The notes under the pieces were generated by a model. It was not told the DNA's origin and did not search any database. It saw only the letters and a program-made list of their open reading frames with translations. Below, piece by piece: positions 36,584-36,869 of a stretch of DNA of 40,000 nucleotides. Source of the stretch: an uncultured Oscillospiraceae bacterium (GTDB lineage: Bacteria; Bacillota; Clostridia; Christensenellales; CAG-314); the NCBI GenBank assembly GCA_964404625.1, contig CAYOKR010000006.1, positions 1 to 40,000 of the forward strand, in the 5' to 3' direction. The translations under genes were made by a program, and so were the position numbers. Each line of letters starts with the position of its first letter. Position 1 is the first letter of the stretch.

Positions 36584-36610
36584 TTGACAGGGGGGGGGTA
36601 ATGTTATAAT
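36584..36610 (+). promoter_or_regulatory. Sigma-A promoter with a G9 homopolymer filling the -35/-10 spacer
   Basis: TTGACA (36584-36589), then G9 (36590-36598), then TAATGT, then TATAAT (36605-36610). The spacer is only 15 nt. The TGT-TATAAT extended -10 is identical to that of the promoter at 37003. Confidence 0.65.
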
Positions 36611-36671
36611 TTTGTTGAAGATAAATTTGGAAAGAATTATCAATCAAAAATATATAAAGAAGAAAAAACTA

Positions 36672-36869
36672 ATGACGACTAAATACAGAAGCATTAGGGT
36701 ATCGAACAAACTACACAACGAAGTAAACGAGATTATTAATATGACAGGATTTACGACGTCAAAACTATTGGAAATGGCTTGGGACGAATTTAAGAAGTCG
36801 CAAAAATACGAACGAATTATATCGTTTTGTATGGACGAAAAAGATGATGGCTACGCCGGTGCAAACTAA
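36672..36869 (+). CDS. Small ribbon-helix-helix-like DNA-binding protein (65 aa)
   Basis: MTTKYRSIRVSNKLHNEVNEIINMTGFTTSKLLEMAWDEFKK has a beta-strand/helix/helix pattern like CopG/Arc. An 85-codon open frame is unusual in such AT-rich DNA. The SD is weak, and the track TTG start at 36612 lies at or upstream of the predicted transcription start (a few nt past the -10 box), so it is not a plausible start. Confidence 0.5.
   Translation: MTTKYRSIRVSNKLHNEVNEIINMTGFTTSKLLEMAWDEFKKSQKYERIISFCMDEKDDGYAGAN

Follow-up and report, generated by a model that had tools for sequence, protein, structure and literature searches.

A Nine-G Tract between the Promoter Hexamers of a CopG-Like, Phage-Derived Regulator Gene: a Possible Tuning Element

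Introduction

The stretch of DNA analysed here (40 kb, hereafter the window) carries a run of nine G between the -35 and -10 hexamers of a promoter, P1, that lies upstream of a gene for a small RHH protein. The question raised by this locus is whether the length of the run sets the expression of the gene. At T. pallidum tp0126 and N. meningitidis porA, which carry a poly-G tract between the -35 and the -10, expression is maximal when the spacer is 17 nt long (PMC7864442). An earlier note on the window had proposed a switch of this kind, with the RHH-like gene toggled on and off by gain or loss of G. Promoter-spacer homopolymer switching has so far been found mainly in surface-antigen genes of Neisseria and Treponema, and the phase switches known in strictly anaerobic Clostridia are mostly invertible DNA elements. 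We know of no established case of promoter-spacer homopolymer switching in Clostridia.

Promoter P1 and Its Spacer

The elements of P1 were read directly on the plus strand at 36584-36610. The -35 hexamer TTGACA (36584-36589) is followed by the G9 homopolymer (36590-36598), TAATGT (36599-36604), and the -10 hexamer TATAAT (36605-36610), so that the promoter stands as the earlier note had given it, with a spacer of 15 nt (G9 plus TAATGT), nine of which are G. The tract therefore lies where it does in loci of the porA/tp0126 type, between TTGACA and TATAAT. Absent from that note was the TG formed by T36602 and G36603, which makes the -10 of P1 an extended one (TGtTATAAT, 36602-36610). Upstream of the -35, an A/T-rich, UP-like stretch covers about 36541-36583.

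Perfect TTGACA and TATAAT hexamers separated by 13 to 21 nt were found at three places in the 40 kb, where 0.14 would be expected; their spacers measure 17, 15, and 17 nt. P1 is the pair with 15 nt; the other two are both spaced 17 nt. Because such pairs are so far above expectation, P1 is almost certainly a genuine promoter or a former one, and its sole defect would be a spacer 2 nt short. It looks like a housekeeping-sigma promoter (sigma-70/sigma-A type) for the CopG-like RHH gene. The three neighbouring promoters, those of the native perR and ttcA genes and the promoter P2 downstream of the RHH gene, all have 17-nt spacers, and an expansion to G11 would bring the spacer of P1 to exactly 17 nt. 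P2 lies at 37003-37031 on the plus strand and reads TTGACA-17-TATAAT with a TRTG element (12/12 matches). It has the -10 context ATGTTATAAT in common with P1, in agreement with what the earlier note had said of this neighbour.

A three-codon mini-ORF, ATG TTA TAA (36601-36609), starts 2 nt past the G9. Its layout, a G run and then ATGTTA, resembles that of p2b, one of the micro-ORFs described below (G8-ATTACT-ATGTTA); the similarity to the micro-ORFs is not significant.

Rarity and Reality of the G Tract

The window has 39.6% G+C and a P(G|G) of 0.176. Runs of at least nine G are expected 0.017 times in a window of this composition if bases are independent and 0.006 times under a first-order Markov model, values that agree with the earlier view of the G9 as improbable by chance. 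Only three G runs of six or more were found in the 40 kb (G6 at 36051, G9 at 36590, and G8 at 37277), and no C run of that length was found in the window. The genome strongly avoids long G runs, which are otherwise purged from it. The two runs of at least eight, G9 and G8, both lie inside an insertion of about 1 kb, and both occupy regulatory positions, the G9 in a promoter spacer and the G8 at a Shine-Dalgarno. The count also confirmed that the G8 at 37277 is the sole other long G run and that it belongs to the same locus. That the two runs occur so close to each other is explained by both being part of the inserted DNA and not of the host.

A second assembly of the locus was found in Logan. 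Contig L001, from run SRR10277277, is 100% identical to the window over 34861-37270, and its G tract has the same nine G; this de Bruijn contig passes through the tract without bubble or break. Both assemblies were probably built from the same reads, the locus being known from one sequencing run, and their identity over the tract makes an assembler artefact at the G9 unlikely. L001 ends at 37270, which is 7 nt short of the G8. A coverage drop, a strain variant, and heterogeneity at the G8 are the candidate reasons. A chimeric join at the poly-G was considered and rejected: the tract is far below the assembler k-mer (with k assumed), it is flanked by unique sequence, and past the G8 the sequence carries on as a paralogous unit.

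An Insertion between perR and ttcA

Alignment to the sister locus in the closest relative (L014) placed an insertion of about 1.04 kb at 36457-37493, with boundaries good to about 10 nt. It holds P1 with the G9, the RHH gene, P2, two pairs of micro-ORFs, and a terminator. On its left, 36384-36446 aligns to L014 at 90%, and on its right 37495-37564 aligns at 81%; the segment between, about 36457-37493, has no counterpart in the three sister genomes (L014, L015, and L016). Synteny of PerR/TtcA/SpoIIID is preserved in these three relatives, whose TtcA proteins show 93%, 91%, and 85% identity, and the gap between perR and ttcA measures 531 nt in L014, 208 nt in L015, and 384 nt in L016 versus 1760 nt here. 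The RHH protein has a cluster of one member, compared with 11 and 37 members in the 90% clusters of PerR and TtcA, which are spread over dozens of contigs; the insertion is therefore strain-specific. By this alignment the 1.04-kb cassette is a strain-specific insertion between two native divergent promoters.

Exact-protein look-ups with RHH, PerR, TtcA, and SpoIIID returned a single Logan contig, from the same run. A metagenome scan with the flanks of the G tract, allowing tract lengths of 4 to 16, gave no match. The whole insertion, searched with blastn, had no match in phages and only short chance matches in plasmids (PLSDB).

The native promoters lie just outside the insertion. That of perR, on the minus strand at 36394-36422 in the left flank, reads TTGACA-17-TATCAT with a TG and is accompanied by tandem Fur/PerR-like boxes; that of ttcA, on the plus strand at 37510-37538 in the right flank, reads TTGACA-17-TAAAAT. 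The minus-strand flank encodes rubrerythrin, rubredoxin, and the Fur/PerR-family regulator (35704-36066), and the plus-strand flank a TtcA-like PP-loop ATPase (37827-38552) followed by SpoIIID. These flanking genes, SpoIIID among them, point to a spore-forming Clostridia lineage as the host.

Several features of the flanks were observed in passing. Tandem 25-nt repeats at 36363-36387 and 36395-36419, with TGATAA..ATTTACTA, extend over the -10 region of perR and are also present in L014. Their probable role is that of Fur/PerR boxes through which perR is autoregulated. Between the perR start codon and this conserved promoter with its PerR boxes lie about 290 nt (36067-36360) that have no counterpart in L014, where the gap is about 40 nt. 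This stretch is a second lineage-specific segment and makes the perR leader about 320 nt long. Upstream of the perR -35, the A/T-rich segment 36416-36454 (minus strand) shares 85% identity across 39 nt with positions 2490-2528 of L004, where the phages with an RHH homolog described below have their early promoter. The left junction of the insertion coincides with the end of this similarity, which may reflect a UP-element grammar common to both or a patch of homology used in capture. The ttcA leader is about 280 nt long (37545-37826) and contains a long imperfect inverted repeat (37575-37604/37683-37712). It had no Rfam match, and its sequence is not conserved in L014.

The RHH Protein and Its Phage Relatives

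The gene downstream of P1 (36673-36869, plus strand) encodes 65 aa and has a weak Shine-Dalgarno. By itself the protein gave only sub-threshold matches to RelB/DinJ (RelB E = 0.07). A HMMER scan of 1.8 billion representative proteins returned five distant homologs with 35-48% identity and lengths of 56-67 aa, and a profile search enlarged the family to 13 clusters. When the family profile was run against the PDB with hmmsearch, the top two entries were CopG (E = 0.08, full length), and hhalign of the profile with CopG gave a probability of 88% and E = 2.9e-6 over 41 of the 45 CopG residues. One family member matched Pfam RHH_3 at 7e-5, and another entry of the family, P0005, is named RHH domain protein by NCBI. 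The AlphaFold2 monomer (pLDDT 82.8) shows an extended N-terminus (residues 1-11) and helices at 12-25, 29-41, and 44-58. Its best Foldseek matches were all RHH proteins (Reg576, MatP, CdbA, HicB, MazE, PutA, PrpA, and ParD), every one of them at E > 0.3 and hence non-significant for this very small protein. The ORF is intact and keeps all eight of the invariant family residues. By profile similarity across the strand-helix-helix core, the protein is placed in the RHH (CopG/Arc/MetJ) superfamily, and its description in the earlier note as RHH-like holds on the CopG profile match, the RHH_3 match, the NCBI name, and the non-significant top fold matches.

At least four of the five placed RHH homologs lie on contigs with phage hallmarks; these contigs reach about 46 kb and encode an SSB, a Phg_2220_C replication protein, a phrog_298 exonuclease, and a PAPS-reductase-like gene, and one of them and the window stem from a single sequencing run. 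In the phages the RHH homolog is part of a conserved same-strand early cassette and has no promoter of its own. Since its homologs sit within phage contigs, the window copy is a solitary captured phage gene, and the insertion is phage-derived. No match to the RHH protein was obtained with tblastn against 50,697 phage records, or to the family profile in IMG/VR. A PADLOC scan for defence systems gave no relevant match. No toxin-size ORF, as in a type II toxin-antitoxin pair, follows the RHH gene; what comes next is a separate promoter and four 18-aa ORFs.

Two of the RHH-carrying phage contigs, L004 and L005, come from different runs and are 99.95% identical over 8.18 kb, and their sole indel is G9 versus G10. 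In this group of phages, then, the length of such tracts either is polymorphic or, at a minimum, is called inconsistently. The tract occupies 7963-7971 of L004 and 7963-7972 of L005, and is also present from 7963 of L006, where it is cut by the contig end. It lies near the 3' end of the PAPS-reductase-like gene and moves the stop from 8019 to 8034; it could be a frameshift-type variable tract or a homopolymer miscall.

P2 and the Micro-ORF Operon

P2 is followed by two tandem units with a period of 162 nt and 75-83% identity, each encoding two 18-aa peptides, all on the plus strand. The first unit holds p1a (MITLITLMLLWKVFTGQI, 37059-37115), preceded by the Shine-Dalgarno AGGAGA, and p2a (MIFALWFFLNVIFECIKK, 37129-37185), whose Shine-Dalgarno is a G5 at 37116-37120. 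The second holds p1b (MITILAIYILWKIFTGQL, 37220-37276), with the Shine-Dalgarno AGGAGG, and p2b (MLFAFWFVINVIFELIKK, 37291-37347). The G8, at 37277-37284, is the paralogous counterpart of the G5; it abuts the stop codon of p1b and leaves 6 nt to the ATG of p2b, in a Shine-Dalgarno-like position. An intrinsic terminator at 37361-37384 closes the operon. Start codons, stop codons, lengths, and Shine-Dalgarno elements are kept in both units, and the replacements between the paralogs of the two units are nearly all conservative and hydrophobic (GRAVY 1.50-1.61), so that the micro-ORFs look genuinely coding, as had been suspected. We take all four as genuine small membrane peptides. The Shine-Dalgarno run is G5 followed by AAA at p2a versus G8 at p2b, which indicates that G-run length has changed since the duplication.

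The hexamer ACTACA marks all four unit boundaries (37053-37058, 37190-37195, 37214-37219, and 37352-37357), shortly before each p1 ATG and shortly after each p2 stop. Weak promoter-like sites on the minus strand, at 37297-37270 and 37156-37129, do not correspond in position between one unit and the other. The fold of the operon mRNA is non-significant (z = -0.48), and a structured RNA or riboswitch in the locus was rejected on this value and on a chance-level RT-6 match as the only Rfam result. An inverted partial p2 copy or antisense target at 36470-36487 was also rejected, being reached in 16 of 300 shuffles and lacking a start codon, and a local alignment score of 24 left the G9 region an unconvincing candidate for a micro-ORF unit in decay.

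Relatives of the peptides or of the insertion were sought in viral contigs, GTDB genomes, JGI metagenomes, GenBank phages, and PLSDB plasmids, and none were found. The degenerate p2 pattern had no match in viral contigs or JGI metagenomes, and its one match in GTDB genomes, within a long ORF of an alphaproteobacterial MAG with 63.5% G+C, was discarded as chance; the p1 pattern had no match in viral contigs.

Imperfect direct repeats, TTGACAATTTTAAAATAA/TTGAGTTTTAAATAT/TGACA, at 36971-37008 on the plus strand extend into the P2 -35 and are an operator candidate only. Nothing matching them was found near P1, and a search for an operator motif common to the P1 and P2 regions yielded nothing beyond the -10 context ATGTTATAAT. 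The proposal of the earlier note that the RHH protein regulates the micro-ORF promoter is therefore left with the adjacency of the two and is conjectural.

Does the Tract Tune the RHH Gene?

The reading that we favour, tentatively, is that the spacer tract is prone to slippage and tunes the phage-derived CopG-like regulator gene rather than toggling it. With nine G the spacer is 2 nt short of 17, which would put the -35 out of register, and P1 in its present state would fire at a reduced level and depend on the extended -10. A G9 run would be prone to replication slippage, and the gain of one or two G (G10 or G11) would give spacers of 16 or 17 nt. A longer tract would then raise RHH transcription in a heritable and reversible way, as a graded "volume knob" and not as an on/off switch. 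In favour of this reading are the non-random hexamer pair of P1, the position of its tract as in porA and tp0126, the placing of both long G runs at regulatory positions, the G5 and G8 of the paralogous Shine-Dalgarno elements, the G9/G10 indel of the phage contigs, and the RHH kinship of the protein. The RHH protein may in turn act as a repressor of P1 and/or of the strong P2 that serves the four 18-aa membrane-peptide ORFs.

Promoters with a TG-extended -10 tolerate a poor or mis-spaced -35 and are the class that depends least on it (compare the "-16 region" of Gram-positive promoters). A promoter that needs its -35 so little should also need the right spacing less, and the effect of spacing at P1 should be damped. 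A promoter-like site at 36513-36541 (plus strand), 64 nt upstream of P1, could moreover supply RHH transcripts whatever the tract length. The extended -10 and this upstream site both oppose the on/off toggle by gain or loss of G that had been proposed, which we regard as unlikely. The weak Shine-Dalgarno of the RHH gene, the identical G9 in both assemblies, and the lack of an operator-like motif common to the P1 and P2 regions were also counted against length-dependent tuning of P1. A second strain with the locus was not found in the protein, genome, and metagenome collections searched.

A more elaborate version of slippage-based control is improbable. It would amount to simple-sequence-repeat phase variation in strictly anaerobic Clostridia and make the phage-derived mini-cassette of this Christensenellales-like gut anaerobe a two-level contingency locus, in which slippage of the G9 acts on the CopG-like repressor and slippage of the G8 on the peptide Shine-Dalgarno. 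The G9 would then generate subpopulations that differ in the paired 18-aa membrane peptides, a new family whose members may be toxins, exclusion factors, or signals.

We rank nearly as likely as a slippage-prone tuning tract the possibility that P1 is real and its G tract fixed, a static relic without adaptive switching. A 17-nt spacer could have contracted and turned the phage promoter down after capture, or the G run could be left over from a G-rich Shine-Dalgarno, and the RHH gene would now be expressed weakly and constitutively, or be decaying. A fixed tract agrees with the identical G9 in both assemblies, an extended -10 makes its 15-nt spacer tolerable, and a non-autonomous insertion in one strain is typical of a recent, maybe neutral fragment. 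The G9 region also aligns weakly to the G8/p2b start (AG8-9..ATGTTAT..ATTTTG..ATAAA), but this similarity to the micro-ORF unit is not significant, as 26 of 500 shuffles reach its score. Decay is hard to match with an RHH ORF that is intact at all eight invariant residues, and a G run without a role sits poorly in a genome from which long G runs are otherwise purged.

It is unlikely that RHH transcription starts from the upstream site at 36513-36541, with TTGACA-G9 as part of a 5' leader serving as a Shine-Dalgarno-like or standby site. That site reads ATAACA-17-TATAAT, matching at 10 of 12 positions with the correct spacing, but it is no better than chance matches, 14 such sites having been found versus 10.2 expected in shuffles. 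G runs do hold the Shine-Dalgarno position of p2a and p2b, and an ATG lies 2 nt past the G9, although the mini-ORF that it opens encodes 2 aa and has no obvious role. The perfect hexamers and TG of P1 would, moreover, be very improbable by chance.

Least probable of all is an artefact, with a true tract that is shorter or longer (G11, for example) or a poly-G from two-colour chemistry: homopolymer length calls are error-prone and a single sequencing run stands behind the locus. Against an artefact, the nine G and the unique sequence flanking them came out of two different assemblers; poly-G read tails are typically much longer than this tract, which lies mid-contig; and the sequence past the G8 stays in register with the paralogous unit.

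If the tract of P1 varies, as the tuning reading would have it, the locus extends promoter-spacer homopolymer switching to commensal Clostridia and to a phage-derived regulator, and it opens a way to study the paired hydrophobic peptides of 18 aa, a family so far uncharacterised. With an invariant tract, the locus would be no more than a piece of phage DNA, captured recently, whose promoter is mis-spaced. In both cases the cassette is an insertion of about 1 kb, specific to the strain, that separates two native promoters.

Comparison with Known Systems

The micro-ORFs recall type I toxins (Ibs/Sib) and the PSM-alpha operon, being small, hydrophobic, and arranged in tandem copies, and each p1 and p2 has its own Shine-Dalgarno. 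Ibs/Sib toxins have 18-19 aa, and staphylococcal PSM-alpha is a tandem operon of small peptides. The four 18-aa ORFs thus correspond to the small hydrophobic toxin ORF of a type I toxin-antitoxin system. In contrast to such systems, the units have no convincing antisense promoter at equivalent positions, their mRNA shows no significant structure by the fold value given above, and they have no sequence relatives in the collections searched. A perfect consensus promoter such as P2 is also unusual for type I toxins.

The RHH protein is similar in size and in its strand-helix-helix layout to CopG of pMV158, Reg576, Arc/Mnt, and omega. CopG-type repressors are encoded on mobile elements behind a strong promoter and are typically autoregulated, and the RHH gene of the window is placed likewise. 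It differs from CopG in an additional C-terminal helix (residues 44-58), in an identity of about 20% with borderline database E-values, and in that no operator-like motif for it was found at P1 or P2. Its placed homologs, moreover, are in phage early operons and not in plasmid copy-control modules.

The closest parallel to P1 itself is with porA of N. meningitidis and tp0126 of T. pallidum. P1 differs from these in that G9 is the one tract length seen at it, in a host of Gram-positive type (Clostridia/Christensenellales-like), and in its TG-extended -10, which should soften the effect of tract length. Its gene, carried by a phage-derived insertion, is for a small regulator of the cytoplasm and not for a surface antigen. 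As in porA and tp0126, the poly-G of P1 lies between the -35 and the -10, an optimum at 17 nt would be expected, and the tract lengths fall within one range (8-11 G).
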